This document shows, piece by piece, positions 2,333 through 20,081 of a stretch of 64,000 nt of DNA. This stretch comes from Escherichia coli. GTDB lineage: Bacteria > Pseudomonadota > Gammaproteobacteria > Enterobacterales > Enterobacteriaceae. The notes below the pieces were generated by a model, which was given only the letters and a program-made list of their open reading frames with translations, was not told the origin of the DNA and did not search any database. Numbering within the stretch: the first letter of the stretch is position 1; every line of letters begins with the position of its first letter. The position numbers were made by a program, and so were the translations under genes. Location: assembly GCF_002854065.1 (NCBI RefSeq), contig NZ_CP024147.1; one strand, written 5' to 3'.

Positions 2333-2678
2333 TTATCTGTTTTGCATGATAAATGGGCAAGATAACCAGGGCGGGGTTTGCAATTTCAATGGGGCAGCGT
2401 CATCAAGGAGGTTGCAAACATCCTGCCATGCATATACTTTACGCCATCTTTTTATATTTGCGTTATTCCTTGAAAGTATAAAGCATTTATAGACTCCCGC
2501 GCGTATAAAGTATTCATGATAGAAAAATGTGAAAACAAGATTCCCTTTGAGTCAGTAAGCTGTTTGTATAGACGACAGTAGGGGGATGTTTTCTACTCAT
2601 TTCAATGTAGATGCCAGCAAAAAGAAGTAAATATTAAGGATAATGTTGTAAACCTGGAGAGTATGAGAAGATCTTGCG

Positions 2679-2709
2679 TACTGTCAGAGAGTTGATTTCT
2701 CTGACAGTA
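2679..2709 (-). terminator. hairpin downstream of yncL
   Basis: Perfect inverted repeat TACTGTCAGAGAG-ttgattt-CTCTGACAGTA immediately 3-prime of the yncL stop; no clear U-tract. Confidence 0.4.
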
Positions 2710-2733
2710 CGTGCTGCGTGCAAAATCACTACA

Positions 2734-2829
2734 TCAAATAAACCAGCCAAATCTCATAGAGATAAGAGTAAACAAACCAACAGCAGCAAAGACATTTATC
2801 AGTACTACAGTTCTACTGGAAACATTCAT
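2734..2829 (-). CDS. yncL: small membrane protein YncL (31 aa)
   Basis: Minus-strand ATG at 2829 to TGA at 2734 encodes MNVSSRTVVLINVFAAVGLFTLISMRFGWFI, a single-TM small protein matching recalled YncL; absent from the ORF track because it is under 60 aa. Confidence 0.7.
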   Translation of the reverse strand: MNVSSRTVVLINVFAAVGLFTLISMRFGWFI

Positions 2830-3023
2830 TTTTGCCACCTTTTATCATTGCCCCTATGTGTATAGTACGGGTTAAGAAAATCCGCAATAATACTCATTCT
2901 GAAGATGGATAAGGGCAAGTTGCTGTTTGATGTTTTTTTCTCAAACCGGTTAAAAAACTTGATGCACGTCAAAAAATGACGCATATTTGCGCGCGTTTTA
3001 TTCATCTGGCTGGACGCCCGTAC

Positions 3024-3197
3024 ATGTCTCTCTATCAACATATGCTTGTTTTTTATGCGGTTATGGCAGCAATCTCATTTCTTATCACCTGGTTTCTTTC
3101 TCACGATAAGAAACGCATCCGTTTCTTAAGCGCCTTTCTGGTGGGGGCAACATGGCCGATGAGTTTCCCGGTGGCGCTGTTGTTTTCACTGTTTTAA
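3024..3197 (+). CDS. ortT: orphan toxin OrtT (YdcX), small membrane protein
   Basis: Internal Met of ORF 2976..3197 gives the 57 aa MSLYQHMLVFYAVMAAISFLITWFLSHDKKRIRFLSAFLVGATWPMSFPVALLFSLF. Confidence 0.8.
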   Translation: MSLYQHMLVFYAVMAAISFLITWFLSHDKKRIRFLSAFLVGATWPMSFPVALLFSLF

Positions 3198-3282
3198 ATC
3201 TTACTCACTGGCTTGACGGCACCACGCAGACTTATATCATTTGGATGAATCGATAAATTTCACAAGTGGCTAAGGAGAAAGT

Positions 3283-3516
3283 ATGTCGCATCTGGATGAA
3301 GTCATCGCGCGCGTGGATGCCGCGATTGAAGAGAGCGTCATTGCCCATATGAACGAATTATTAATCGCCCTGAGCGATGACGCGGAGTTAAGTCGGGAAG
3401 ATCGCTACACCCAGCAGCAACGTCTGCGCACAGCGATCGCCCATCACGGTCGCAAGCATAAAGAAGATATGGAAGCTCGCCACGAACAGTTAACCAAAGG
3501 CGGCACCATCCTGTGA
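3283..3516 (+). CDS. ydcY: uncharacterized protein YdcY
   Basis: 77 aa ORF preceded by AAGGAGAAAG ribosome-binding site; position and size as in K-12. Confidence 0.8.
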   Translation: MSHLDEVIARVDAAIEESVIAHMNELLIALSDDAELSREDRYTQQQRLRTAIAHHGRKHKEDMEARHEQLTKGGTIL

Positions 3517-3966
3517 TTAAAATGAGCGTCTGGCCACCAGCCAGGCGCCAACCACAAGTAAAATTGCGCCACAAATTGGGCCGATCAACGCCCGTAGTGG
3601 TACGCCATGGCTGCGGAAGATATCCAGCACCAGACCGCCAATCAGCTGGCTGGCGACCAATACCGCAATAGTTGTCGCCGCTCCCACATTCTGATATCCG
3701 CTGATACTGGCGAAGACAAAAAACGATCCCAGCAAGCCAGGTATAAGTGTCCACCAGCGCACGCTGGACACCAGTTCGCCAAACCCCGCCATACCTTGTT
3801 TAAACCATAAAATAGAAACAAAGAGCACAATCCCCACCAGTGAGTTCAGCAACATGGCGATGAGAATGGTAGAGGAGGTCTGGGTGATGCGCACCATCAG
3901 CGTGTTCTGGACTACCAGACCAATTCCGGCGGCAATCAAAAAGGCAAGGGTGAGCGACTGATTCAT
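3517..3966 (-). CDS. ydcZ: inner membrane protein YdcZ (DMT-like)
   Basis: 149 aa polytopic hydrophobic ORF; 4-bp overlap with mnaT. Confidence 0.85.
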   Translation of the reverse strand: MNQSLTLAFLIAAGIGLVVQNTLMVRITQTSSTILIAMLLNSLVGIVLFVSILWFKQGMAGFGELVSSVRWWTLIPGLLGSFFVFASISGYQNVGAATTIAVLVASQLIGGLVLDIFRSHGVPLRALIGPICGAILLVVGAWLVARRSF

Positions 3967-4481
3967 CCAATCACGTCCGGTTCAGTGCGTTCGTCGAGTT
4001 GCAACTGCATAAATGTCAGATCCAGCCAGCGCCCAAATTTAGTGCCCACCTGCGGCATTTGTGCGGTGACGACAAATCCCAGCGACTGGTGCAGATGCAG
4101 CGAGGCCTGATTTTGCGATTCGATCCCGGCGACCATGACATGCTTCCCGCAATCCCGCGCTTCATCAATCAATCGGCTTAACAATTTACGCCCCAGACCT
4201 TTGCCCTGATGATCGGGATGGACATAAACCGAATGTTCCACGGTATGGCGAAAACCATCGAAACTACGCCAGTCGCCAAATGAGGCATATCCCGTCACTA
4301 CGCCATCTTCTTCACTTACCAGCACCGGATAACCTGCTATGGTCCGCGCTTCAAACCAGGCAATGCGGTTATCTGCATCCACCGTTTGGTCATTCCAGAT
4401 AGCCGCCGTATACAACACGGCGTGGTTATAAATTTCCGCAATGGCAGCACAGTCGGCTTTGCGGGCAAAACGGATGGACAT
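3963..4481 (-). CDS. mnaT: GNAT N-acetyltransferase MnaT (YncA)
   Basis: Internal start MSIRFARKADCAAIAEIYNH; GNAT motifs (HPDHQGKGLGRKLL); the ORF track's 250 aa form is an N-terminal over-extension. Confidence 0.85.
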   Translation of the reverse strand: MSIRFARKADCAAIAEIYNHAVLYTAAIWNDQTVDADNRIAWFEARTIAGYPVLVSEEDGVVTGYASFGDWRSFDGFRHTVEHSVYVHPDHQGKGLGRKLLSRLIDEARDCGKHVMVAGIESQNQASLHLHQSLGFVVTAQMPQVGTKFGRWLDLTFMQLQLDERTEPDVIG

Positions 4482-4661
4482 GTCTGGCCTCAATAAAATA
4501 ATGATGATGATGTTATCAATACTATCGAAAACAGCCCGAAGCAACGGATTCCTCGATGAAATTATTGCGTGTTGCAGAGGGGATGTGACGGCTGCAAACA
4601 AAACCAATCCCGTGAGCCTGCTACTATTGATGGATTCATGCCAAAAGCACAGGAGAGCATT

Positions 4662-5699
4662 ATGGGGCAACAAAAGCAGCGTAATCGACGTTGGGTTCTG
4701 GCCTCGCGTCCACATGGCGCACCAGTTCCGGAGAATTTCCGTCTTGAAGAAGATGATGTCGCCACACCGGGTGAAGGACAGGTGTTACTGCGCACAGTTT
4801 ATTTGTCCCTGGACCCGTATATGCGTGGACGTATGAGCGATGAGCCATCTTATTCACCGCCGGTTGATATTGGCGGCGTGATGGCCGGCGGTACGGTGAG
4901 CCGTGTCGTGGAGTCGAATCATCCTGATTATCAGCCTGGCGATTGGGTGCTGGGCTACAGTGGATGGCAGGACTATGACATATCCAGTGGTGATGATCTG
5001 GTGAAACTTGGCGATCATCCGCAAAATCCATCGTGGTCGCTGGGTATGCTGGGGATGCCAGGCTTTACCGCTTATATGGGGCTGCTGGATATCGGTCAGC
5101 CTAAAGAGGGCGAAACGTTGGTGGTAGCTGCGGCGACAGGACCAGTGGGGGCGACGGTGGGGCAAATCGGCAAACTTAAAGGTTGCAGAGTGGTGGGGGT
5201 AGCCGGTGGCGCGGATAAATGCCGCCATGCTACCGAGGTGTTAGGCTTCGATGTTTGCCTTGATCACCACGCGGACGATTTTGCCGAACAACTGGCGAAA
5301 GCGTGCCCAAAAGGTATTGATATCTATTATGAAAACGTGGGCGGTAAGGTATTTGATGCAGTGCTACCATTACTTAATACATCTGCGCGCATTCCCGTTT
5401 GTGGCTTAGTGAGCAGCTATAACGCTACAGAGCTACCACCCGGTCCGGATCGTTTACCCCTGTTGATGGCAACGGTGCTGAAAAAACGTATTCGCTTGCA
5501 AGGGTTTATTATCGCCCAGGATTATGGTCATCGCATCCATGAGTTTCAGAAGGAGATGGGGCAATGGGTGAAAGAGGATAAAATCCACTACCGCGAAGAA
5601 ATTACTGACGGTTTAGAGAATGCGCCACAGACGTTTATCGGCCTGCTGAAGGGTAAAAACTTCGGCAAAGTGGTGATCCGCGTGGCGGGTGATGATTAA
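4662..5699 (+). CDS. curA: NADPH-dependent curcumin/dihydrocurcumin reductase (MDR superfamily)
   Basis: Start MGQQKQRNRRWVLASRPHG after AGGAGAG ribosome-binding site; 345 aa; medium-chain dehydrogenase Rossmann motif AAATGPVGATVGQIGK. Confidence 0.85.
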   Translation: MGQQKQRNRRWVLASRPHGAPVPENFRLEEDDVATPGEGQVLLRTVYLSLDPYMRGRMSDEPSYSPPVDIGGVMAGGTVSRVVESNHPDYQPGDWVLGYSGWQDYDISSGDDLVKLGDHPQNPSWSLGMLGMPGFTAYMGLLDIGQPKEGETLVVAAATGPVGATVGQIGKLKGCRVVGVAGGADKCRHATEVLGFDVCLDHHADDFAEQLAKACPKGIDIYYENVGGKVFDAVLPLLNTSARIPVCGLVSSYNATELPPGPDRLPLLMATVLKKRIRLQGFIIAQDYGHRIHEFQKEMGQWVKEDKIHYREEITDGLENAPQTFIGLLKGKNFGKVVIRVAGDD

Positions 5700-5896
5700 A
5701 GTTTCAACGGCGGCGTAAGCCGCCATAAAAATCCAGGCAAAAAGCTTAATTTCAGCTTTAATTAACTAACCACGTTATTGTTATGCTGCTAATAACAACA
5801 AAGGTAAGTGGTTTATGATTATTCACTTTAATACACCAGGTGAACTCCTTCTGCCATGCAGGCAGGGTTGGACAGAAAACACGCGAAGGAATTAAA

Positions 5897-6562
5897 ATGC
5901 CTGGAACGGGAAAAATGAAACATGTCAGTTTGACTCTGCAGGTTGAGAACGACCTGAAACATCAGCTTAGTATTGGCGCACTAAAACCTGGCGCACGCCT
6001 GATTACTAAAAATCTGGCGGAGCAATTAGGTATGAGTATTACACCTGTGCGTGAAGCATTATTACGTCTGGTTTCGGTGAATGCGCTTTCTGTCGCACCA
6101 GCGCAAGCATTTACAGTTCCGGAAGTGGGGAAACGTCAATTAGACGAAATCAATCGGATCCGCTACGAACTGGAATTAATGGCAGTTGCTCTGGCTGTTG
6201 AAAACCTCACCCCGCAAGACCTGGCGGAACTCCAGGAATTGCTCGAGAAATTACAGCAGGCGCAAGAAAAGGGCGACATGGAACAAATCATTAATGTAAA
6301 CAGGCTATTTCGCTTAGCGATTTTTCATCGCTCAAATATGCCCATCCTGTGTGAGATGATTGAGCAAATGTGGGTCAGGATGGGGCCTGGTTTACATTAT
6401 CTCTATGAAGCGATTAATCCAGCGGAATTACGGGAGCATATAGAAAACTATCATCTATTACTCGCCGCGTTAAAAGCAAAAGACAAAGAGGGATGCAGAC
6501 ATTGTCTTGCTGAAATTATGCAACAAAATATTGCTATTTTATACCAGCAATACAATCGTTAA
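5897..6562 (+). CDS. mcbR: GntR-family transcriptional regulator McbR (YncC)
   Basis: 221 aa from MPGTGKMKH; N-terminal winged HTH and FCD-type C-terminal domain. Confidence 0.85.
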   Translation: MPGTGKMKHVSLTLQVENDLKHQLSIGALKPGARLITKNLAEQLGMSITPVREALLRLVSVNALSVAPAQAFTVPEVGKRQLDEINRIRYELELMAVALAVENLTPQDLAELQELLEKLQQAQEKGDMEQIINVNRLFRLAIFHRSNMPILCEMIEQMWVRMGPGLHYLYEAINPAELREHIENYHLLLAALKAKDKEGCRHCLAEIMQQNIAILYQQYNR

Positions 6563-6567
6563 AGTAA

Positions 6568-6589
6568 ATGCCCGGCAAATACCGGGCAT
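6568..6589. terminator. bidirectional hairpin between convergent mcbR and yncD
   Basis: ATGCCCGG-caaat-ACCGGGCAT palindrome between the two stop codons. Confidence 0.5.
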
Positions 6590-6597
6590 CAAGGTAA

Positions 6598-8700
6598 TTA
6601 CTCAAATCGCCATGCGATATTCACGCCGACACCATAATTTCGCCCGGGCGCAGGTTCGTAATATCGCCCGTTTGACTCATTGACAATGACAGAACCAACG
6701 TATTCTTTATCGAATAAATTATCGACACGACCAAATAAGTCCACAGTTAAATTGTGGTAATTGTATTTATACCCGGTGAATAAGCCGACGAGAGTATAAG
6801 ACGGCGCTTTGGCCGTATTTTCATCATCTGCCATAATATCGCCCATATAACGCGCTTCCGTGCCTGCATACCAACCATCTTCCGGTACATAACCTATCGA
6901 CGCAAAGCCCATATTACGGGCGATCCCTGGCATCCGATTACCGTTACAATCCTGTTCGTTGCAAACATTGCTGCGATAGGTCGCATCAAGCCAGGTCCAG
7001 GACGCGTTTACGCGAAAATCTCCCGCGAAACGTTGATCCCATGCCAGTTCAGCGCCTTGACGACGGGTCTTTCCGGCATTTTTGTAAGTCGTACGCCCAC
7101 CGCTACTGCTATCGACAACAATTTCATCATCGGTGTCGGTCTGGAACAATGCGAGACTAAGCAGCCCATCACCAATACGCGTTTTACTGCCGATCTCAAT
7201 TGTATCGTTGGTGGATGGTTTTAAACCAAAGTTCATACCGCTTTGCCCATCAGCGCGATAAGACAGCTCATTAATCGTCGGCGTTTCAAAACCTCGACCA
7301 GCTGCCAGATAGATATTCCAGGCATCAGTCATTGCATATTTTAACGATCCGGCAGGTAGCCATTTGTGATAACTGGCATCACCACTGTCATCGCCGTTAC
7401 CCGGAGTAACGTAATGGTCGTTGGAATCAAACCACACGGAGCTGTAGCGCACGCCAGCATCCAGCGACAGTTTTTCGCTCAGCTGCCACTGCGTTTGTAA
7501 ATAGGGATCGACGTTCCACATCAGATTGCGTTCGTCGCGACGCAACTCACCTTTTTGCCCGTATTCCGGCACGCCGCTATTCAGGCGGAAATTATTGTAG
7601 CCCTTGCGGTTTTCACTCATGTTTTCGTAGTTCAGACCGGTGGTGAACGTGACTGGAACGCCCAGTTCACCTCGGTGTGTCCAGCGACTGTCTATCCCCT
7701 GGTAATGGCGTTGTAGAGTAATCACGCCACCCGCGTGTGACGGGTTAAGTTGTGGTGCCATCGGGATGGACTGGTATTGGGTCGTTTCACGTTCACCTGC
7801 GTACATCATTACACTCATATCATCGCTTGCGCTAAGACTACGCTCATAACGCAACCCAGCCTGAGTTTGCTTGATGGTTTTTCGCGTGTCGTACTGTTCA
7901 GCGCGTGGCGCTTGTTGTGGATTCGCCTTCCATTCTGCTTCGGTTAATCCACCAGGATCATCTGCTTTTATATCCACACTATTGAAAATCAGGCTTAATT
8001 TGCTGACTTCATCAATGCGTACGCCCAGTTTGGCATTGGCTAAATTTTTCTGTGCGCCACTATGGTCACGGTAGCCGTGGGTCGTAAAGCGCGTGGTTGA
8101 GACGGTGTAATCGACATCGCCAGGCTGTGTACCGTCGCCCATTGCGCCCGTTGCTTTCAGCCCATAGCGCCAGCTGCCAAAACTGCCGTAGTAACTGCTG
8201 GCTTCAATGGTTGGTGGCTGTTGCCCGGTCTGGGTGGTGACATTCATTACCCCGCCAGACGCGTTGCCATACAGGGCAGAGAAGGGGCCACGCAGCACTT
8301 CTACATTTTGCACACTGCTTAAATCGATGTTGGATGTTTGCCCTTGTCCGTCGGGCATGGTGGCGGGAATACCGTCTACATACAGGCGAATACCGCGAAT
8401 TCCGTAAGTGGAGCGGGAGCCAAATCCGCGAATCGACAGCTGTAAATCTTGCGCATAGTTCTGCCGGTTTTGTACCTGCAAACCAGGCACGCTGGTCAGA
8501 GATTCAGACAAGTTGATGCGCGGTGTTGCCAGGCGCATCTCCTCGCCATCCACCACGCTTACTGCTGCTGGCGTATCCAGCTCGGAAACCACCTGCGGCG
8601 CGGCACTGACAATCATGGTTTGTTCATCAGCGGCAAAAACGGCGGGGGAAAGGACAAGCAGCGCGGACAAAACGGTCTGTCGGGCGGAAAAAATCTTCAT
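6598..8700 (-). CDS. yncD: TonB-dependent outer membrane receptor YncD
   Basis: 700 aa; signal peptide, plug and beta-barrel; C-terminal aromatic residue (NIAWRFE). Confidence 0.9.
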   Translation of the reverse strand: MKIFSARQTVLSALLVLSPAVFAADEQTMIVSAAPQVVSELDTPAAVSVVDGEEMRLATPRINLSESLTSVPGLQVQNRQNYAQDLQLSIRGFGSRSTYGIRGIRLYVDGIPATMPDGQGQTSNIDLSSVQNVEVLRGPFSALYGNASGGVMNVTTQTGQQPPTIEASSYYGSFGSWRYGLKATGAMGDGTQPGDVDYTVSTTRFTTHGYRDHSGAQKNLANAKLGVRIDEVSKLSLIFNSVDIKADDPGGLTEAEWKANPQQAPRAEQYDTRKTIKQTQAGLRYERSLSASDDMSVMMYAGERETTQYQSIPMAPQLNPSHAGGVITLQRHYQGIDSRWTHRGELGVPVTFTTGLNYENMSENRKGYNNFRLNSGVPEYGQKGELRRDERNLMWNVDPYLQTQWQLSEKLSLDAGVRYSSVWFDSNDHYVTPGNGDDSGDASYHKWLPAGSLKYAMTDAWNIYLAAGRGFETPTINELSYRADGQSGMNFGLKPSTNDTIEIGSKTRIGDGLLSLALFQTDTDDEIVVDSSSGGRTTYKNAGKTRRQGAELAWDQRFAGDFRVNASWTWLDATYRSNVCNEQDCNGNRMPGIARNMGFASIGYVPEDGWYAGTEARYMGDIMADDENTAKAPSYTLVGLFTGYKYNYHNLTVDLFGRVDNLFDKEYVGSVIVNESNGRYYEPAPGRNYGVGVNIAWRFE

Positions 8701-8835
8701 GAAAAAAGCCAGGTTAAGAATGGGAAAACGCTGTCATGGTAATAAAATTGTAAATTTATGGAAAACGAAACGGCACAATACGTTAAGTGTTTGAGAAAAT
8801 TGTAGTCGTAACGGCAAGAAATGCTCCACATTTGA

Positions 8836-8855
8836 GAAAATAATGATTACCATTC
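8836..8855. promoter_or_regulatory. Fur-box-like site in the yncD/yncE divergent promoter region
   Basis: GAAAATAATGATTACCATTC resembles the Fur consensus GATAATGATAATCATTATC; lies roughly 90-105 bp upstream of the yncE ATG. Confidence 0.35.
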
Positions 8856-8941
8856 CCATTTATAACAAGAGCGTAACGAAGATTACGCTCAGCGAAGCAC
8901 TGTGAAGCAGCAAAAATATCGGTTCATTAAAGGGAGTCGTC

Positions 8942-10003
8942 ATGCATTTACGTCATCTGTTTTCATCGCGCCTACATGGTTCATTACTGTTAGGTTCATT
9001 GCTCGTTGCTTCATCATTTAGTACGCAGGCCGCAGAAGAAATGCTGCGTAAAGCGGTAGGTAAAGGTGCCTACGAAATGGCTTATAGCCAGCAGGAGAAC
9101 GCGCTGTGGCTTGCTACTTCGCAAAGCCGCAAACTGGATAAAGGTGGCGTAGTTTATCGTCTCGATCCAGTCACTCTGGAAGTGACTCAGGCGATCCATA
9201 ACGATCTCAAGCCGTTTGGCGCTACCATTAACAACGCTACTCAAACATTGTGGTTTGGTAACACGGTAAATAGCGCGGTTACGGCGATTGATGCCAAAAC
9301 GGGAGCGGTGAAAGGGCGCCTGGTGCTGGATGATCGTAAGCGTACGGAAGAGGTGCGCCCGCTGCAACCGCGTGAGCTGGTCGCAGACGATGCCACAAAC
9401 ACCGTTTACATCAGTGGTATTGGTAAAGAGAGCGTGATTTGGGTCGTTGATGGCGAAAATATCAAACTGAAAACCGCCATCCAGAACACCGGTAAAATGA
9501 GTACCGGTCTGGCGCTGGATAGCAAAGGCAAACGTCTTTACACCACTAACGCTGACGGCGAATTGATTACCATCGACACCGCCGACAATAAAATCCTCAG
9601 CCGTAAAAAGCTGCTGGATGACGGCAAAGAGCACTTCTTTATCAACATCAGCCTTGATACCGCCAGGCAGCGTGCATTTATCACCGATTCTAAAGCGGCA
9701 GAAGTGTTAGTGGTCGATACCCGTAATGGCAATATTCTGGCGAAGGTTGCGGCACCGGAATCACTGGCTGTGCTGTTTAACCCCGCGCGTAATGAAGCCT
9801 ACGTGACGCATCGTCAGGCAGGTAAAGTCAGTGTGATTGACGCGAAAAGCTATAAAGTGGTGAAAACGTTCGATACGCCGACTCATCCGAACAGTCTGGC
9901 TCTTTCTGCCGATGGTAAAACGCTGTATGTCAGTGTGAAACAAAAATCCACTAAACAGCAGGAAGCTACCCAGCCAGACGATGTGATTCGTATAGCGCTG
10001 TAA
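8942..10003 (+). CDS. yncE: secreted beta-propeller protein YncE
   Basis: 353 aa with signal peptide (MHLRHLFSSRLHGSLLLGSLLVASSFSTQA). Confidence 0.9.
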   Translation: MHLRHLFSSRLHGSLLLGSLLVASSFSTQAAEEMLRKAVGKGAYEMAYSQQENALWLATSQSRKLDKGGVVYRLDPVTLEVTQAIHNDLKPFGATINNATQTLWFGNTVNSAVTAIDAKTGAVKGRLVLDDRKRTEEVRPLQPRELVADDATNTVYISGIGKESVIWVVDGENIKLKTAIQNTGKMSTGLALDSKGKRLYTTNADGELITIDTADNKILSRKKLLDDGKEHFFINISLDTARQRAFITDSKAAEVLVVDTRNGNILAKVAAPESLAVLFNPARNEAYVTHRQAGKVSVIDAKSYKVVKTFDTPTHPNSLALSADGKTLYVSVKQKSTKQQEATQPDDVIRIAL

Positions 10004-10031
10004 TAGACATGGGGGAGTTTGTCTTTCGTAG

Positions 10032-10061
10032 GCCAGATAAGGCGCTTGCGCCGCATCCGGC
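10032..10061. repeat. REP (repetitive extragenic palindrome) element
   Basis: GCCAGATAAGGCGCTTGCGCCGCATCCGGC matches the REP-type palindrome class. Confidence 0.5.
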
Positions 10062-10125
10062 ACGAACAAAGAGCACCTCGTCAGCAATATGAATTTGCCC
10101 GGCTCGTAGCCGGGCAATTTTGCAA

Positions 10126-11625
10126 TTAACTCGCCGTTTCAGGCTTAAATGCAATATCCTGTTTTTCTTTATCTACTTCGACTACGGGCGCAGTGCTGTG
10201 AATTTCAGCAACGCGTTTGCGCACACCAAACCAGCCTATAACCAGCAGAATACCGATAATCGGCAGCGCCGCGATAGTATAAGTCCCGTTCGGGTAATCG
10301 AACGCCATCAGCACAAGGACACTCAGTAAAAACAGTAATGTCAGCCAGGAAGTGAAGGGCGCGCCAGGCAGTTTAAAACTGACATCCGCTGCTTTGCCTT
10401 CTTTAATCGCTTTACGCAGGCGCATCTGGCACACGATGATAAACGCCCATGAAGCGATGATTCCCAGCGACGCGAAGTTCAACACAATCTCAAATACGCG
10501 CGACGGCACCAGATAGTTGAGGAATACGCCGACGACATACACAACCAGTGTCGCCAGAATCCCGGCATACGGCACATGCTGACGACTCATTTTCGCCATA
10601 AAACTCGGTGCGGAACCGCCCATCGCCATTGAGCGCAGAATACGTCCGGTGCAGTACAGACCTGAATTCAGGCTGGAGAGGGCAGCGGTCAGCACCACAA
10701 TGTTCATAATGCTGCCGATATATGGCACACCCAGTTTAGAGAAAAACGTCACGAACGGACTTTGCCCCGCCTGATACGCGCTCCACGGCAATAACATAAC
10801 CAGCAACACCACGGAGCCGACGTAAAACAGGCCAATACGCCAAATCACACTGTTAATCGCTTTAGGCACCATGGTCTGCGGATCTTTACATTCTCCGGCA
10901 GCTGTACCCACCATTTCAATGGAGGCAAAAGCAAACACTACGCCCTGAATCAACACCAGCGCAGGCAGCAAACCGTGGGGGAAGAAGCCGCCATTATCGG
11001 TGATTAAATGAAAGCCAGTGGTGTTGCCATCCAGCGGCTGACCACTACCGAGGAACACCGTACCCACGACCAAAAAGGTCACAATGGCGAGCACTTTAAT
11101 AAGCGCAAACCAGAACTCCATCTCGGCGAACCATTTCACGCCGATCATATTCATGGTGCCAACGATGGTAAGTGCAGCGAGCGCAAAGACCCACTGCGGC
11201 ACGCCGCCAAACGCACCCCAGTAATGCATATACAGAGCGACGGCGGTAATATCAACAATCCCGGTCATCGCCCAGTTGATGAAGTACATCCAACCGGCAA
11301 CATAAGCGGCTTTCTCACCCAGAAACTCACGGGCATAGGAGACAAAGCTGCCACTGGAAGGGCGATGCAATACCAGCTCACCCAACGCGCGCAGAATAAA
11401 AAACGAAAACAGGCCGCAGATTAAATAGACCAGTGCCAGCGCCGGCCCCGCCATTTGCAGTCGGGCTCCCGCGCCTAAAAACAAACCAGTACCAATCGCA
11501 CCGCCAATGGCGATCATCTGCACCTGACGATTGCCCATTGCTTTGTGATATCCCTCTTCGTGGGCATTAAGCCAGCGGCGTTTCGCAGCGTGTTGCTCTG
11601 AAGTGTCGGTGTTGTGTTTACTCAT
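10126..11625 (-). CDS. ansP: L-asparagine permease (APC family)
   Basis: Start MSKHNTDTSEQHAAKRRWLN; 499 aa; 12-TM amino acid permease. Confidence 0.9.
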   Translation of the reverse strand: MSKHNTDTSEQHAAKRRWLNAHEEGYHKAMGNRQVQMIAIGGAIGTGLFLGAGARLQMAGPALALVYLICGLFSFFILRALGELVLHRPSSGSFVSYAREFLGEKAAYVAGWMYFINWAMTGIVDITAVALYMHYWGAFGGVPQWVFALAALTIVGTMNMIGVKWFAEMEFWFALIKVLAIVTFLVVGTVFLGSGQPLDGNTTGFHLITDNGGFFPHGLLPALVLIQGVVFAFASIEMVGTAAGECKDPQTMVPKAINSVIWRIGLFYVGSVVLLVMLLPWSAYQAGQSPFVTFFSKLGVPYIGSIMNIVVLTAALSSLNSGLYCTGRILRSMAMGGSAPSFMAKMSRQHVPYAGILATLVVYVVGVFLNYLVPSRVFEIVLNFASLGIIASWAFIIVCQMRLRKAIKEGKAADVSFKLPGAPFTSWLTLLFLLSVLVLMAFDYPNGTYTIAALPIIGILLVIGWFGVRKRVAEIHSTAPVVEVDKEKQDIAFKPETAS

Positions 11626-12599
11626 TGCGCTCCCTGATTGCTTTAATGAAAAAAGTCTTTTATGTCGCCATGAACAATGTTTATTCATCCTGGCGATGAC
11701 AAGATTCACCATTATTCTTTATGGGTATAACTGTCGGCGCAGAATCCTACCTTTTATCGTGTAACGATGCAAAATAATCCCACTATAAATGTGAGGGGAT
11801 AAAGGCAGCTGGCGACAAAATAGCAACCTGATGAAATTATGACGGAAACAACCACTATTGGTTCGATGATACTCGACTGTCGCCGACTCTTTAGCCAATC
11901 GTTTGTCGCTCTGAGCGCAAGTGGTTGCAGTGGACACTGGTGTGGTTGGTTTTCGCTGATTATCATTGAATAGTGAGGGACCAGCGCATGAGTGGTTTCA
12001 GGGGTAATACGCCAAATACCAATACAATTGCTGATTAGAAATGCCAGTTGTCGAGGTCACAGAAAGTGCAAAAAATGTAAGAGTGATATCGGGTGACAAT
12101 TGTGCTATTGCCCAGCAGAAATTTTTTAAATTAGTACTGTTCCAGGGGCATTACAAACCTTAAAACATTACTTCAATATAATTAATGTGTATATCATTCT
12201 TGATATTAATTTATGAAGTGAATTTGATATATTCCGAATTCTTAATTTACATTACTAATGTATGGGACATAACGTTAAGATGGCTATGTGCAGATTAAGA
12301 TATCAGGGTGGGGCGGTAGCGTTTACAGATATTAATTAATTGATGAGAGCTATGTTATCCGCACAATCATTTACATCAGCTATTGATATTGAAGATAGAT
12401 AAATAAATATGCTGAGAATTAATGTTAAGGAATCGTAATGGGAAACTTTGATAACTTGCTTTGATTTCATTCTCTATGAAGATGATGTCATCAACACTGC
12501 ATAAAGTGGAAATATTGAACATCAAAGAGAACCATATTTAATAAATAATAACAGAGCGTTTGTGTTTATCTGAAAAATATCATTTCCAGGAGGTAGGAT

Positions 12600-13130
12600 A
12601 TGTCATTAAGGAGAATGACATCTGGTGAATTAGCATTGGCCAGATCGATTTTTGAAAATACAATTGATTATAGTAAGGTATGGATCCACAATGAAAAATA
12701 TTTGCCGGGTCAAGGGGAAAGAACAGCGATGACCCCAAACGGGGAAATGTATTATCCTGATGCTGTTTATAGTTCAGATTATTCATCGCAAACAATGCCT
12801 GGTGATCGTGAAACAGTAGCAGGTGCTTCTCACTTGTTTATTCATGAAATGATGCATGTTTGGCAATATCAGAAAGGGTATGCAGTTAAGTTGCGTGGTT
12901 TATTTTCCTGGGCGGCAAATTATCATTACGATCTTAATTTACAGTCAATTTCTTCTTATTCCATGGAACAACAAGCATCTATAGTTGCTGATTATTGGCT
13001 ATTGATTAACTATGGACTGGTGGCTGATTTGGCAAATGTTAACTATGTAGGTGATACAACTGAATCCGTTAACACTCTATCGGAAAAATACAAAAAGGTG
13101 CTTAATTTATTTCCTGCGGGTGTCATATGA
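12600..13130 (+). CDS. HExxH zincin-like protein, DUF4157-like (putative effector/toxin)
   Basis: 176 aa; strong AGGAGGTAGG ribosome-binding site; no signal peptide; motif string IDYSKVWIHNE...ERTAMTPNGEMYYP...HLFIHEMMHVWQYQ resembles my recollection of the DUF4157 consensus (DLSxVRVH...AFTxG...LLAHELxHVxQQ); AT-rich context. Confidence 0.55.
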   Translation: MSLRRMTSGELALARSIFENTIDYSKVWIHNEKYLPGQGERTAMTPNGEMYYPDAVYSSDYSSQTMPGDRETVAGASHLFIHEMMHVWQYQKGYAVKLRGLFSWAANYHYDLNLQSISSYSMEQQASIVADYWLLINYGLVADLANVNYVGDTTESVNTLSEKYKKVLNLFPAGVI

Positions 13131-13483
13131 AGAGATTCTTTTTGTTTTTCTTTTTGTCGGGATGCACTGTTGGTGATTATGTTCGCCCATTGTTACCCGG
13201 TAATGTATATTTACAAGATGGACGGGTTTGTTCAAAACCAGACGATGGAGGTATTATTTCAAATTATATTTTATATGAAGGTAAATATGGCAATGCAATA
13301 AAGCTGAAAAGAGTAACAGGTCAGTTCGACCCCGTATGTATTGACATAAGTGAGCTATCTTCAGATGTTATTTATATCGGGCAATATATGCTCTCTTCCG
13401 GAAGTAAAAAAGAATACTATGGTTTTAGAATAATTAGATCCGGAGTACGTATTTTAAGACTTGATGATAACCATATCAAATAA
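13127..13483 (+). CDS. small lipoprotein, translationally coupled partner (putative immunity/inhibitor)
   Basis: 118 aa; ATGA start/stop overlap with the upstream gene; lipobox FLSGC (signal MKRFFLFFFLSGC). Confidence 0.55.
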   Translation: MKRFFLFFFLSGCTVGDYVRPLLPGNVYLQDGRVCSKPDDGGIISNYILYEGKYGNAIKLKRVTGQFDPVCIDISELSSDVIYIGQYMLSSGSKKEYYGFRIIRSGVRILRLDDNHIK

Positions 13484-13703
13484 CAGATTAAAAATTTTAT
13501 TAGTTTCATTAATGTGCTTTAGGTGAATGTTTTCACCAGGTTAACATGACGGTGCATTCTTCAAGGCATATATGGTTGATAGTATCTTCAGTAGCTCGCA
13601 TAAGTATTGAGATGTTTTACGCCAGTTACGAATATATTGCATATTTTATTCTCTGTAAGATTTCTTATTAGCACTTAGCCATTTCTAGTTAAAAGGATTA
13701 ATT

Positions 13704-15191
13704 ATGAGTTTTGCAGCTACAGATTATCCATCCGGCGCACTAACTGGATCGGGTACACATAACGTGACTTTGAGCGGCAGCGCAGTTCCTGATGGAATGT
13801 TACTGTTTGCAAGCTTAGGGGGTACAGAAACAGTAGGGGAACTATTTACTTATTCTATTAAATTAAAAACTCCTGACATCCTGAACCTGGGCTATGTTTC
13901 CCCCGCCGCAAACCTGCAGCTCAAACCGATGGTGGGCAAAGATCTGTGCGTCCATATCGAACTGGATGGCGGCGGAAAACGTTATATCAGCGGGCTGGTG
14001 ACGGCGGCACGCGTGGCTGGTCATCAAGGACGTTCGGTGGTGTATGAACTGCGGCTCGAACCGTGGTTAAAAATACTGACCCACACTAGTGACTACAAAG
14101 CGTTTCAGAATAAAAACGTGGTGGACATCCTGGATGAGGTACTGGATGAGTATCCCTGGCCAGTGGAAAAACGGCTGGTGGAAAATTATCCGACTCGCGC
14201 CTGGCAGATGCAGTACGGTGAAACAGATTTCGCTTTTATTCAGCGCCTGATGCAGGAGTGGGGTATCTACTGGTGGTTTGAGCACAGCGAGAACAGTCAC
14301 ACGTTAGTGCTGGCTGATGCCATTAATGTCCACAAGGCATGCGCAGATTCGCCGCTGGTGTGTTATTACCAGAAAGGGCTGAAACTGGACAAGGAGTTTA
14401 TCCATACCATCACAGCAAATGAAAGTCTGCGCAGCGGACAGTGGGTGCTGAATGATTTCGACTTTATGAAGCCGCGTTCACTGCTGAAGAGCACCGTGGC
14501 TAATCCGCGTGAAACCGGCCTTGCTGAATATGAGCACTACGAATGGCCGGGAGATTACTTCACAAAGAGTGAAGGTGAAATGCTGACACGCATTCGCATG
14601 GAAGAACAGCGTAGCCCCGGTAGTCGGGTACAGGGCAGCGGCAATATTCGTACCCTGATGACAGGTTTTACCTTCACCCTGGAAAACTATCCGACAGCCG
14701 AAGTGAACCGGGAATATCTGCTGGTACAGACCACGCTATTTATACAGGACAATGCGCAACACAGCGGCCAGGAGCAGCATTTCTCTTACTCAACCAGCTT
14801 TGAACTGCATCCCACCAGCGAAGTTTACCGCCCACAACGAACCCTGAGCAAACCCCACACTAAAGGCCCGCAGAGTGCCATCGTCACCGGCCCGGCAGGG
14901 CAGGAAATCTGGACAGATAAATATGGCCGGGTGAAAGTTCAGTTTGGCTGGGATCGTTACGGTAAGAATGACGAAAACAGCTCCTGCTGGGTCCGTGTCA
15001 GTTATCCGTGGGCTGGTAAAGGATTCGGTGGCATTCAGATCCCGCGTATTGGTCAAGAAGTACTGGTGGATTTCAAAAACGGTGATCCGGATTTACCGAT
15101 AATCGTTGGGCGTACCTACAACCAGGACACCATGCCACCGTGGGGACTACCTGAACGGCGTGTACGACAGCACGGGGCACCTGCTGCGTGA
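13704..15191 (+). pseudogene. vgrG: vgrG, N-terminal portion only (T6SS spike protein), truncated
   Basis: 495 aa ORF containing the VgrG gp27/gp5 signature ([39 protein letters not shown]); the frame ends shortly after this motif, well short of a full-length VgrG. Confidence 0.75.
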
Positions 15192-15298
15192 GTTTGCTTA
15201 CGACGAAAACCACTGCATGACGCTGCACCGCCAGCCGGGCGGCGAAGGGTATTATTACCAGTGGGGCTGGTATGACGGTCCGGATGATGCGGCGTGGC
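15145..15298 (+). other. Rhs/YD-repeat-like remnant fused out of frame to the vgrG end
   Basis: Alternative frame reads [44 protein letters not shown], a YD-repeat-like pattern; short and without a proper start. Confidence 0.35.
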
Positions 15299-15513
15299 GG
15301 GCACCCCTCCGAAATCTTCACCGTGACACCCCGCCCGGTATCAAATCCGGCCTCTTTCAGCCAGTCGCCCTTAAGGTTCAGGCTGGGGTGTCGTGAGTAG
15401 TACGTGGTCATGTAGGTTTTGCTGTTTATGTGGCGGGCTCTGACATAGCCGACTTTATAGCGTCGCTGTGTTTTGGAAATGGTGACTTCTGGCGTAATAT
15501 CGTGTTCAGCCAT
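15286..15513 (-). pseudogene. SymE-like (AbrB-fold) type I toxin, N-terminal ~76 aa, 3-prime end replaced
   Basis: AGGAG ribosome-binding site plus ATG at 15513; [34 protein letters not shown] aligns with SymE (...[38 protein letters not shown]); after EGC the frame runs antisense into the Rhs/vgrG remnant. Confidence 0.5.
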
Positions 15514-15826
15514 GATTAACTACTCCTGTTAGTTGCTTGTGGTGAGCGGCTGTTACAGGCGGCCACCTGTAGCAGTCGCGTTAAATATCAACGCATTACC
15601 TTCATTACCTGCTTCATCTTCTCCTGCGTGATCGCCATATCCAGAATACGGCAGATCACTTCCTGATCGTCTGCTTTAAGCTCAGGGAAAGATCATCAGA
15701 AGTTCACTTTTTGTACTAAATAATTCGCATTTTATGTTTAAAAATTGAGATATTCCTCATTACCTGAAGCTGTTTTTTATTGCTTATACATGATCAAATA
15801 CTCCTTACATAATTAAGGAGAACAAA

Positions 15827-16963
15827 ATGGAACTTAAAAAATTGATGGAACATATTTCTATTACCCCCGATTACAGACAAGTCTGGAAAGTGGAACATAA
15901 ATTATCAGATATTCTACTGTTGACTATTTGTGCCGTTATTTCGGGTGCAGAAGGTTGGGAAGATATAGAGGATTTTGGGGAAACACATCTCGATTTTTTG
16001 AAGCAATATGGTGATTTTGAAAATGGTATTCCTGTTCACGATACCATTGCCAGAGTTGTATCCTGTATCAGCCCTACAAAATTTCATGAGTGCTTTATTA
16101 ACTGGATGCGTGATTGTCATTCTTCAGATGATAAAGACGTCATTGCAATTGATGGAAAAACGCTCCGGCATTCTTATGATAAGAGTCGCCGCAGGGGAGC
16201 GATTCATGTCATTAGTGCGTTCTCAACAATGCACAGTCTGTTCATCGGACAGATCAAGACGGATGAGAAATCTAATGAGATTACAGCTATCCCTGAACTT
16301 CTTAACATGCTGGATATTAAAGGGAAAATTATCACAACTGATACGATGGGTTGCCAGAAAGATATCGCAGAGAAGATACAAAAACAGGGCGGTGATTATT
16401 TATTCGCGGTAAAAGGTAACCAGGGGCGGCTTAATAAAGCCTTTGAGGAAAAATTTCCGCTGAAAGAATTAAATAATCCAGAGCATGACAGTTACGCAAT
16501 GAGTGAAAAGAGTCACGGCAGAGAAGAAATCCGTCTTCATATTGTTTGCGATGTCCCTGATGAACTTATTGATTTCACGTTTGAATGGAAATGGCTGAAG
16601 AAATTATGCGTGGCAGTCTCCTTTCGGTCCATAATAGCAGAACAAAAGAAAGAGCCAGAAATGACGGTCAGATATTATATCAGTTCTGATGATTTAACCC
16701 CAGAGAAGTTCGCCAGAGCAATCCGAAACCACTGGCACGTGGAGAATAAGCTGCACTGGCGTCTGGACGTGGTAATGAATGAAGACGACTGCAAAATAAG
16801 AAGAGGAAATGCAGCAGAATTATTTTCAGGGATACGGCACATTGCTATTAATATTTTGACGAATGATAAGGTATTCAAGGCAGGGTTAAGACGTAAGATG
16901 CGAAAAGCAGCCATGGACAGAAACTATCTGGCGTCAGTCCTTGCGGGGAGCGGGCTTTCGTAA
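15827..16963 (+). mobile_element. ISAs1-family transposase (Rhs-associated H-repeat protein, YdcC/YhhI-like), intact ORF
   Basis: 378 aa ORF with AAGGAGAACAAA ribosome-binding site; H-repeat protein hallmarks ([12 protein letters not shown]..., ...[32 protein letters not shown]...); inverted-repeat ends not delimited. Confidence 0.85.
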
Positions 16964-17273
16964 TCTTGCCCTGGTTCGTTGAGTTTTACTGCATTGTCGG
17001 TAATTTAGGCATCTCCTTTGTCCGTAGCTTGTTTCAGCGTCTATAATGGGCGTTAATAAATTGGCAAGTCGGGAACTAGATGTTTTCTTAATGGTATGTT
17101 GGCAGAAGAATATGTTCTGCAAGTTGAAGATTTGTTGGTGCTTTATTTAAAAGGGTGTAGTGCAAATATCTACAATTTCAAGCAGGCATTATTGTCGTAA
17201 AAACGCTTTACCGGACACACGACATTCACAATGTGTGTTAATTTTACTGACATCTTTCAAAAGGAGCGTAATC

Positions 17274-17501
17274 ATGCCGCACATCGACATTAAATGTTTT
17301 CCGCGTGAACTGGACGAACAACAAAAAGCAGCACTTGCTGCAGATATTACCGACGTTATTATTCGCCATTTGAACAGTAAAGACAGTTCGATAAGCATTG
17401 CTCTACAGCAGATTCAACCAGAATCTTGGCAAGCTATCTGGGATGCCGAAATCGCGCCCCAAATGGAGGCTTTGATAAAGAAACCCGGTTACAGCATGTA
17501 A
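17274..17501 (+). CDS. pptA: tautomerase PptA (4-oxalocrotonate tautomerase family)
   Basis: AAGGAG ribosome-binding site then [30 protein letters not shown]-terminal Pro after Met; 75 aa. Confidence 0.8.
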
Positions 17502-17504
17502 TGC

Positions 17505-18074
17505 TTAACCTGCCGTAACTCGCTTGCCGCTGGTAACAAACGTGCCAGCACCTAAATGATGCAACGTATTGAGCTTATCATCATCAAACTGCCAGCGGCC
17601 TTCGACAAATACCTGTGCGTCTGCCGCTGCTGATACTACCTCGCCAAACAGTGTGTCGTATTTTTCTTGCGCGGAAGTCGCAGGTAGCAAGCGGCACTCC
17701 ATCCACGCCAGACATTTTGCCTCGACCAGAGGCAAACCAAGTACCGGACCTTTCACAACCGGAATGCCATAGCAATTAAATTTATCTTCATCACGCCCCG
17801 ACACACTTCCCACCGCCCACGTCCAGTTAGTTGCTGCAACGCCCGGGATAACGATGCCAAATTTACCGTTATGTTCAATCAACTCCCTGGTCCATGTCGA
17901 TTTATCTACCACAATCGCCACGCGTGGAGGTTCAAACTCCACCGGCATTGACCAGGCTGCAGCCATAATGTTACGCCGCTGGGATTGCTCATCGAAACTG
18001 GTGATCAAGACCGTTGGGCCATGATTTAACAGACGGCTGGCATGGTGTAATTCTATGGGGATGAATCGGCTCAT
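17505..18074 (-). CDS. yddH: flavin reductase-like protein YddH
   Basis: Start MSRFIPIELHHASRLLNHGPTVLITS; 189 aa. Confidence 0.8.
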   Translation of the reverse strand: MSRFIPIELHHASRLLNHGPTVLITSFDEQSQRRNIMAAAWSMPVEFEPPRVAIVVDKSTWTRELIEHNGKFGIVIPGVAATNWTWAVGSVSGRDEDKFNCYGIPVVKGPVLGLPLVEAKCLAWMECRLLPATSAQEKYDTLFGEVVSAAADAQVFVEGRWQFDDDKLNTLHHLGAGTFVTSGKRVTAG

Positions 18075-18246
18075 GGTATCGCCTCGCGAAGAAGGTTTTT
18101 TTAAGCGTAGTCCGTAACGCAATAAGTAACGAAATTAACGGGATTGGCGATTTGCGAACGTGATGCATGTCCGCGATCGCACAAAATAGCCGGTGCGGCG
18201 TCTATTCCAGGTTATAAGTTGAGAAAACCACTAAGGGAAACGCCTG

Positions 18247-19092
18247 ATGACGCCCATTCTGAATCACTATTTTGCCCGTATTATCTGGTCGGGAGCTGCT
18301 GCGGTCAATATTGATACGCTTCGTGCATTGCACCTGAAACACAATTGCACCATTCCGTTTGAAAACCTCGACGTTTTGCTGCCGAGGGAAATACAGCTTG
18401 ATGATCAATCTCTGGAAGAGAAATTGGTGTTCGCCCGGCGTGGCGGTTACTGCTTTGAACAGAATGGTGTGTTTGAGCGGGTATTACGCGAGCTGGGTTT
18501 TCAAGTACGCAGTCTGTTAGGTCGCGTAGTGTTATCTAATCCGCCAGCATTACCGCCGCGTACACATCGTTTGCTGTTGGTGGAGCTGGAAGGAGAAAAA
18601 TGGATTGCTGATGTCGGTTTCGGTGGTCAGACATTGACTGCGCCGATTCGTTTAGTGGCGGATATCGCACAAATAACGCCACATGGCGAATATCGGCTTT
18701 TACAGGAAGGGGATGACTGGATTTTGCAGTTTAATCATCATCAGCACTGGCAGTCGATGTACCTTTTTGATCTCTGCGAGCAACAACAAAGCGATTATGT
18801 GATGGGTAATTTCTGGTCGGCACACTGGCCGCAATCGCATTTTCGCCATCATTTGCTGATGTGCCGCCATTTGCCGGACGGTGGCAAGCTAACGCTGACC
18901 AATTTTCATTTCACCCATTATGAAAATGGGCACGCGGTGGAGCAGCGAAATCTACCTGATGTGGCGTCGTTATATGCTGTGATGCAGGAACAGTTTGGTC
19001 TGGGCGTAGATGACGCAAAGCATGGCTTTACCGTGGATGAACTGGCGTTGGTGATGGCGGCGTTTGATACGCACCCGGAGGCGGGAAAATAA
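18247..19092 (+). CDS. nhoA: arylamine N-acetyltransferase / N-hydroxyarylamine O-acetyltransferase
   Basis: 281 aa; NAT catalytic Cys context (RGGYCFEQN). Confidence 0.9.
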   Translation: MTPILNHYFARIIWSGAAAVNIDTLRALHLKHNCTIPFENLDVLLPREIQLDDQSLEEKLVFARRGGYCFEQNGVFERVLRELGFQVRSLLGRVVLSNPPALPPRTHRLLLVELEGEKWIADVGFGGQTLTAPIRLVADIAQITPHGEYRLLQEGDDWILQFNHHQHWQSMYLFDLCEQQQSDYVMGNFWSAHWPQSHFRHHLLMCRHLPDGGKLTLTNFHFTHYENGHAVEQRNLPDVASLYAVMQEQFGLGVDDAKHGFTVDELALVMAAFDTHPEAGK

Positions 19093-19096
19093 TTTA

Positions 19097-19180
19097 TGTC
19101 AGGTTGCCGGATGCGGCGTAAACGCCTTATCCGGCATACATTAGCCCGGTTGTAGACCTGATAAGCGAAGCGCATCAGGC
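19097..19180. repeat. REP/BIME cluster
   Basis: Two inverted REP units (GCCGGATGCGGCGTAAACGCCTTATCCGGC ... GACCTGATAAGCGAAGCGCATCAGGCA). Confidence 0.6.
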
Positions 19181-19187
19181 AACGGTT

Positions 19188-20081
19188 TCAGAGTTTAATT
19201 GCCCATTCGGCATGAAACAAAATCACCGCCGCGCCAGAAATGGTGACTTTTTCCGGTTGGTTATCACGAATTGTCACCGTCACTTCAATCACGCCGTCAC
19301 GCCCCAATGCGCGCCCCTGATGGCCTTTAACACGCAGCACCTTGCCATCGTGGGGCAATACGTTGTGATGTACCAACCATGCACCCATCGGGCCATTGGC
19401 ATTGCCAGTTACCGGATCTTCCACAATACCAATCGCAGGCGAGAACATGCGACCATCGGTTTCGTTTTTGCCTGGGCGGATCTGGAACGGGAAGAAACCA
19501 TTGCAGCCAATCTGTTTGCTGATAGCGCTCAGCGCAGCAAGATCAGGCGAAAGGGCGTCGATATCCACTTCTGATTTCAACGGGATCATCACTTTTGAGT
19601 GTCCTGTTGTTGCCACCTGAATTGGCAAGCCTGGCAGAATATCGTCCTCAGTGAGATGAAGCGCGTTGATAATCGCCGCACGTGTTTCACCTTCCAGCGG
19701 TGGCTCAAAGCCCGGCGTACCTTGTTCCAGCGAAATACGATAACCATCGTGGTGCTTTTCGATAGTCACGCGATGTTTTCCTGCCAGCGATGTTTGCCAG
19801 ACCGTGCAATTTCCTAAACCTAACACCTTCGCACGTACATAGTGCGCAGCTACTGTCGCGTGACCGCAAATAGGCACTTCAACTGTTGGCGTAAAGTAGC
19901 GGATGCGCACATCGCTGTCGTCGCTGTGCAGCAGAAAAGCGGTTTCCGAATGACCTAATTCGCGGGCGATAAGCTGCATTTGCGCTTCGCTAAGATTATC
20001 GGCGGGGAAAACAACACCGGCAGAATTGCCGCGAAATGGTTGAGAGGTAAAAGCATCGACGTGGTAAACCTGCGGTTTCAT
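19188..20081 (-). CDS. yddE: PhzF-family isomerase YddE
   Basis: 297 aa; PhzF-like fold motifs. Confidence 0.85.
   Translation of the reverse strand: MKPQVYHVDAFTSQPFRGNSAGVVFPADNLSEAQMQLIARELGHSETAFLLHSDDSDVRIRYFTPTVEVPICGHATVAAHYVRAKVLGLGNCTVWQTSLAGKHRVTIEKHHDGYRISLEQGTPGFEPPLEGETRAAIINALHLTEDDILPGLPIQVATTGHSKVMIPLKSEVDIDALSPDLAALSAISKQIGCNGFFPFQIRPGKNETDGRMFSPAIGIVEDPVTGNANGPMGAWLVHHNVLPHDGKVLRVKGHQGRALGRDGVIEVTVTIRDNQPEKVTISGAAVILFHAEWAIKL

Follow-up and report, generated by a model that had tools for sequence, protein, structure and literature searches.

In Escherichia coli, the interval between ansP and pptA is a site which carries the RhsE element in strain K-12, and defective Rhs elements are an already known kind of decay for which no new mechanism is needed. 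The C-terminal domain of Pseudomonas aeruginosa VgrG2b is a metallopeptidase toxin which acts in the periplasm and is neutralised by a lipoprotein, and the K-12 symE gene lies in the hsd region. A vgrG-rhsE island is known in EHEC EDL933 (PMC7216683), and symE has been found adjoining orphan hcp genes in Pantoea (PMC3942780). At ansP–pptA, the intact islands of strains A37, SCU-113 and APEC E12049 begin with a metallopeptidase effector gene, a lipoprotein immunity gene, vgrG, a DcrB/EagR chaperone gene and a gene for a PAAR-DUF6531-Rhs toxin, and continue with one or more immunity genes, orphan cassettes, symE on the opposite strand, an HTH gene with further genes, an ISAs1 element and finally pptA. 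In all three strains this auxiliary vgrG-eagR-rhs module is found by itself in the ansP–pptA interval.

The stretch of E. coli DNA analysed here, hereafter the window, is 64,000 nucleotides long and holds an island at this same site, in the order pqqU, yncE, ansP, island, pptA, yddH, nhoA, yddE and narV/W/Y/Z. From 11700 to 15151 it is orthologous to the intact loci of A37, SCU-113 and APEC E12049 (92.8-94.4% identity), with identical gene order as far as vgrG codon 483. We consider it highly probable that the region is a recently decayed auxiliary T6SS vgrG-Rhs island which cannot work as a T6SS module. Two sister genomes share the allele: across the island-spanning 5.5 kb at 11700-17200, strain 100416 (human stool, Gambia) is 99.9% identical to the window and strain CUWW06 (wastewater, Thailand) is 100% identical apart from an extra IS1, with 2-5 base differences between the window and each of them, which makes the source of the window a third strain, closely related to both.

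The G+C content is 32-39% over 11750-13700, a segment comprising the ansP-proximal spacer and the HExxH pair discussed below, and 50-56% in the truncated vgrG and the flanking core genes. In the spacer of about 0.9 kb that separates ansP from the HExxH gene, no ORF exceeds 72 aa; in CUWW06 this spacer contains an IS1B copy (CUWW06 locus 2905-3674; window 12096-12104) around which the flanking homology overlaps by 9 bp. Further away, between a porin gene and narU according to the sister-genome annotation, the minus-strand region 28604-31187 encodes a 425-aa leucine-rich-repeat protein (LRR_4, LRR_8) and two adjoining ORFs without a Pfam match; it is presumably the K-12 yddK/yddL region, and ordinary. 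A promoter and terminator consensus scan of 13400-15850 returned sites no more frequent than in shuffled sequence.

The largest remnant of the island is vgrG' (13704..15151, plus strand), a pseudogene retaining codons 1-483 of a 664-codon gene. It makes up most of a 495-aa plus-strand ORF (13704-15191), the last 12 residues of which are junction read-through, encoded by a tail at 15152..15191 (plus strand) of 12 non-native codons and a stop where Rhs DNA is read in the vgrG frame. The product carries the gp27-like hub domain Phage_GPD (Pfam PF05954, aa 41-350, E 2e-98) and the gp5-like OB-fold Phage_base_V (Pfam PF04717, aa 405-472, E 1.6e-13), and the whole ORF covers profile positions 8-460 of 513 in the NCBIfam VgrG model TIGR03361. 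An earlier, sequence-only reading of this DNA had described a vgrG frame with the canonical spike motif that ends at 495 aa, and such a truncated vgrG frame is what we find. Residues 1-483 align gap-free with the 664-aa VgrG of APEC E12049 (478/483 identical, 99%) and nothing matches beyond them, while DNA homology to three intact vgrG genes stops exactly at 15151. In the intact orthologue the Gp5_trimer_C needle (PF22178) occupies aa 489-594; both this needle and the C-terminal tail involved in PAAR/effector loading are absent from the VgrG of the window, where native residues stop at 483. In 100416 and CUWW06 the gene is labelled by PGAP as an incomplete pseudogene with its C-terminus missing. 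Beyond the truncation, the 483 kept codons show neither stops nor frameshifts. Comparison with four intact orthologues gives dN/dS values of 0.04-0.10; it follows that purifying selection acted on vgrG through almost all of its divergence and that the gene was truncated recently.

The vgrG homology gives way to Rhs DNA at a first junction, J1, where vgrG (...GGGGACTACC) is matched up to 15151 and Rhs (...ACCTGAACGG) from 15149, the two sharing ACC (3 bp). Relative to intact loci, 2,856 bp (SCU-113) or 2,857 bp (APEC E12049) are missing at this point. The lost DNA encoded the C-terminal part of VgrG, the DcrB-family chaperone of the EagR type, and Rhs up to codon ~595; PAAR and DUF6531, which lie at aa 291-473 in the intact orthologue, have thus gone as well. 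What follows is rhs' (15149..15301, plus strand), a fragment of 153 bp corresponding to codons ~597-646 of the PAAR-DUF6531-Rhs protein, whose intact versions measure 1458-1543 aa; the extended YD-repeat shell is thereby reduced to about 50 codons. The fragment is 99.3%, 97.4% and 94.8% identical to the interior of the Rhs genes of SCU-113, A37 and APEC E12049, respectively, and it is read in a frame other than that of vgrG', namely the frame of a 96-aa ORF at 15106-15396. The Pfam RHS_repeat profile has no match on this piece of ~51 codons alone, even at E<=10, and the matching 141-aa stretch of an intact Rhs protein does score with it. The identity of the fragment as Rhs is consequently taken from DNA orthology, because the fragment gives no profile match by itself.

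These results bear on several points of the sequence-only reading. Its proposal that a deletion had fused a truncated vgrG to an Rhs remnant is borne out at base-pair resolution, and the alignment to full-length VgrG and Rhs proteins which it suggested does map the breakpoint, with vgrG homology to 15151 and Rhs homology from 15149. Its end coordinate, 15298, is only 3 bp short of 15301, where Rhs homology really ends. As for the short YD-repeat-like segment in a different frame, the presence of Rhs DNA in another frame holds (99.3% identity), and the YD-repeat character finds no counterpart in an RHS_repeat profile match. Its single vgrG-Rhs breakpoint corresponds to J1, but the locus bears at least three scars rather than one: J1, a second junction J2, and the point where an HTH stub meets the end of an ISAs1 element.

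Upstream of vgrG', two genes are intact. The first (12600..13130, plus strand) encodes a 176-aa HExxH protein, a free-standing homologue of the VgrG2b C-terminal metallopeptidase domain: it has no Pfam or NCBIfam family match and is matched by PDB 6H56 (6h56_A) over aa 4-138 with E 2e-20, the HEMxHVWQ motif included. Its public annotation as a 'type IV secretion protein Rhs' is misleading. The second (13127..13483, plus strand), which overlaps the effector gene by 4 bp, encodes a candidate immunity lipoprotein of 118 aa with a lipobox in its N-terminus (MKRFFLFFFLSGC); NCBIfam NF045617, 'putative T6SS immunity periplasmic lipoprotein', hits it weakly, at E 2.8e-7, with a score of 30.7 bits that does not reach the cut-off of 43. 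An HExxH gene of equal length (531 nt) precedes vgrG in A37, SCU-113 and APEC E12049. In A31, an independent ISAs1 insertion interrupts the HExxH gene (A31 locus 3491-4781; window 12721-12729); the homology on its two sides overlaps by 9 bp, as a target duplication would produce.

The sequence-only reading had called such loci reservoirs of orphan toxin/immunity cassettes and had considered this relevant to the HExxH pair. For the present locus this does not hold. All intact loci examined have the pair, unchanged in length, ahead of vgrG, and it therefore represents conserved cargo and not an orphan Rhs cassette; no orphan cassette survives downstream, because the whole downstream part has been deleted. 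On the basis of homology and position, the HExxH gene and the lipoprotein gene are the predicted effector and immunity cargo of the island. A working spike is no longer available to them, and we infer that the pair would now matter at most through its immunity gene.

According to the annotation of a near-identical genome, the 64-kb window contains no T6SS structural genes. Their absence had been noted from the sequence, where it was attributed to an orphaned, decayed island. The absence itself is confirmed; decay as its cause is not, since intact islands also stand alone at this site and the lack of adjacent structural genes is thus no consequence of the decay. The T6SS core was sought at the tRNA-Asp locus of the two sister genomes. 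In CUWW06, the cluster next to tRNA-Asp (aspV site) consists of tssA, tssG, tssF and tssE with a tagJ pseudogene, is cut by an IS3 element, and is followed by an Rhs fragment and another symE (CUWW06 locus 10053-19444). In 100416, the same site (locus 9399-41759) has no tss genes at all; it holds an island for copper/silver resistance (sil/pco), in which there are also IS66 and ISAs1 elements and a fragment of Rhs. The islands at tRNA-Asp thus differ between two strains which are nearly identical at ansP–pptA, indicating rapid turnover. Between the vgrG', rhs' and symE' sequences of the window and the tRNA-Asp islands of both genomes, the only match is one of 62 bp in symE, and each genome has a second vgrG- or Rhs-like match elsewhere. 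Seen at one site in two sister genomes, these observations fit a lineage which has lost its T6SS and is now shedding the accessories.

Against this background, the possibility that the 495-aa ORF is a natural short VgrG, still working as a spike or as the carrier of the HExxH effector, can be weighed. In its favour, vgrG' has an undamaged start codon and complete gp27 and OB domains, the kept part has a low dN/dS and the upstream effector/immunity pair is undamaged. A low dN/dS is, however, expected anyway with a recent truncation, the Gp5_trimer_C needle is gone, the T6SS core at tRNA-Asp is a stub in one sister genome and missing from the other, and only 2 of 5,426 genomes carry the allele. 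A naturally short but complete VgrG is ruled out by the orthologues at the same locus in A37, SCU-113 and APEC E12049, which measure 663-665 aa and are 99% identical up to residue 483, after which the DNA homology switches abruptly to Rhs. We therefore regard a functional short VgrG as very improbable. The recently decayed island remains the preferred reading, although vgrG', in which the start and the gp27 and OB domains persist, might still yield a stable truncated protein.

At J2, Rhs homology (...GTGGCGGG) extends to 15301 and homology to the symE region (...GGCACCCC) starts at 15300, with GG (2 bp) in common. The missing DNA amounts to 3,187 bp in comparison with APEC E12049 and to more in comparison with strains that have orphan cassettes. 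Inside this segment of at least 3.19 kb lay the remaining Rhs shell, the RHS core end (PxxxxDPxGL), the C-terminal toxin tip, the immunity genes, among them the cognate one, and the 3' third of symE. The surviving symE' (15300..15513, minus strand) is a pseudogene with codons 1-71 of a 109-codon gene for a SymE-family type I toxin. Its DNA homology begins at 15300-15302, with 98% identity to the APEC E12049 copy; at the protein level 70 of 71 residues are identical to intact 109-aa SymE and the alignment stops at residue 71. A complete SymE toxin ORF is absent, 71 of 109 residues being kept, and PGAP labels symE' as an incomplete pseudogene in both sister genomes. The frame runs on through the junction as a chimeric minus-strand ORF (15073-15513) of 146 aa, in which SymE residues 1-71 are followed by 75 residues from antisense rhs'/vgrG'; Pfam SymE_toxin matches it with E 1e-17 at profile positions 1-49 of 54.

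Two RNA matches accompany symE'. A SymR-like antisense RNA candidate at 15508..15582 (plus strand; Rfam RF01809, model 1-77, E 6e-5) scores 39.2 bits, below the gathering score of 61; this sub-threshold match overlaps the symE' start codon on the expected strand. An isrA-family sRNA match at 15314..15442 (plus strand) covers the full model RF01385 (1-129) with 119.3 bits against a gathering score of 51 (E 4e-27). It begins 14 nt past the Rhs/symE junction and is exactly antisense to the symE' coding body. This arrangement suggests that the isrA family may be an antisense transcript of symE paralogues from Rhs arrays.

Whether the rearrangement has created a new functional gene, either a VgrG-Rhs fusion that depends on frameshifting or the minus-strand ORF of 146 aa at 15073-15513, has to be considered, as both reading frames are open and symE' still covers 49 of 54 positions of the SymE_toxin profile and has both its start and the SymR-like antisense element. 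Nevertheless, the Rhs frame adds only ~80 residues without a toxin domain before running into antisense symE, sequence read from antisense DNA takes the place of the last 38 SymE residues, and an allele of such rarity and youth cannot be expected to show selection. A novel gene of either kind seems scarcely probable in comparison with the decay of an auxiliary island.

Next to symE', a 97-bp stub at 15588..15684 (minus strand) corresponds to the last ~32 codons of the HTH gene that follows symE in intact arrays. The segment 15302-15684, which holds both stubs, is 94% identical to positions 9001-9383 of the RhsC locus of strain d1-58, where the HTH CDS lies at 9287-9685 on the minus strand. The HTH stub is abutted by the left end of an ISAs1-family element, or H-repeat (15683..16974, plus strand), the limits of which were set by comparison with a copy of 1291 bp that strain A31 carries at another position. 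Imperfect inverted repeats mark its ends at 15683 and 16974, and it includes an intact ydcC transposase gene (15827-16963, plus strand; 378 aa) with Pfam DDE_Tnp_1 and a match to NCBIfam transpos_ISAs1 (NF033564) at E 4e-122. K-12 homology spans 15671-16974, and on its right side the element continues into pptA through the same ydcC–pptA junction as in K-12. No target-site duplication flanks the element at 15683-16974, which would fit an IS-adjacent deletion or an IS-IS recombination better than a simple insertion.

Relatives of the two stubs were seen in a tandem arrangement. In the d1-58 RhsC locus (2334-14776) and in the SCU-113 ansP-pptA locus, a tandem unit of ~6.57 kb is found 3' of the Rhs genes, comprising symE and HTH genes, both on the minus strand, a CHC2 primase, a XerC-like recombinase, a spacer of ~0.9 kb, and an Rhs core end with a variable toxin and immunity gene. 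Of the Rhs core, the unit contains the final ~75 nt, to which the variable toxin is fused. Two copies of the unit are 94.7% identical over 5.9 kb, with similarity stopping inside the Rhs core-end motif. Of such a unit the window keeps only the stubs of symE' and the HTH gene, at 15300-15684. The repetition of the unit and the conserved backbone ending in the Rhs core-end motif would be compatible with an integrative element of ~6.6 kb bringing new Rhs toxin tips to Rhs loci, the loss of which the window might record, although we regard this as rather unlikely. In the limited literature searched, nothing specific was found to link symE and a primase/integrase unit with Rhs arrays.

Among 5,426 complete E. 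coli genomes, queries spanning the junctions found exactly two, 100416 and CUWW06, that have both J1 and J2, and no genome in this set has only one of them. Islands of this type are carried by 215 genomes. The three carriers, the window included, show zero base differences across 13704-15683. That J1 and J2 are assembly or chimera artefacts has a negligible probability, for even though Rhs, vgrG and ISAs1 are multi-copy sequences which often confuse assemblers (the median genome has 5 matching places), the sequence around the junctions is unique and outside long repeats, the overlaps are of 2-3 bp only, and the junctions recur identically in the window and in two independent complete assemblies from different continents, which rules the artefact out.

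The homologies, exact breakpoints, frames, domain losses and rarity of the allele are observed directly; the mechanism and order of the deletions and the loss of function are inferred. In the decay of the auxiliary island, one deletion would have removed 2.86 kb, from vgrG codon 483 to Rhs codon ~596, and another at least 3.19 kb, from Rhs codon ~646 to symE codon 71; an ISAs1-adjacent loss may then have taken all the DNA that lay between ydcC and what is now the 3' stub of the HTH gene. The overlaps of 2-3 bp at J1 and J2 point to illegitimate (microhomology) deletion as their probable origin. No intermediates were found among the 5,426 genomes, and the two junctions may reflect either two separate deletions or one complex event. 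T6SS function would not be expected of the remnant, because the needle, the effector-binding tail, the chaperone, PAAR, the Rhs shell, the toxin tip and the immunity genes of the Rhs toxin are gone.

The locus offers a base-pair-resolved example of how vgrG-Rhs islands may erode through short-microhomology deletions and IS-adjacent loss after the firing apparatus has gone. The upstream effector/immunity pair, outlasting the weapon, is in line with the common view on immunity genes. The significance of the locus is mostly limited to annotation, as it represents ordinary gene decay whose pseudogenes are already annotated in public genomes; the 495-aa 'VgrG', the 96-aa 'YD-like' ORF and the 146-aa minus-strand ORF are not to be counted as functional genes.

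Compared with the known systems, each part of the locus has a recognisable counterpart. With P. aeruginosa VgrG2b (PDB 6H56), the window protein shares a conserved HExxH motif and a partner with a lipobox; the domain is fused to VgrG in VgrG2b, whereas the predicted effector of the window is encoded by a free-standing gene upstream of vgrG. With SymE/SymR of K-12 and with IsrA, a Salmonella island sRNA, the window has in common the SymE_toxin domain, a candidate SymR-like element at the start codon and the antisense isrA-family match. Unlike in SymE/SymR, the toxin is cut at 71/109, the SymR match is below the Rfam gathering score, and the symE concerned is a paralogue belonging to Rhs arrays and not to the hsd region. 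In relation to the intact vgrG-eagR(DcrB/DUF1795)-PAAR-Rhs islands, the window is without the VgrG C-terminus, the chaperone and 96% of Rhs, and likewise has no toxin tip, no immunity genes and no orphan cassettes from the part downstream of vgrG. Strain A31 provides another decayed version, in which ISAs1 copies sit inside the HExxH gene and the chaperone gene. The closest parallel is the K-12 RhsE element (rhsE', ydcD, yncI', ydcC), which is at the same site, has the same ydcC beside pptA and is likewise defective as an Rhs element. In K-12 the part of rhsE that survives is its C-terminal 2 kb, together with ydcD, whereas the window keeps 153 bp from the middle of the Rhs core; and K-12 has yncG/yncH where the window has the HExxH pair and vgrG, 73% of which is kept. 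K-12 and the window are independent decay paths at one locus.
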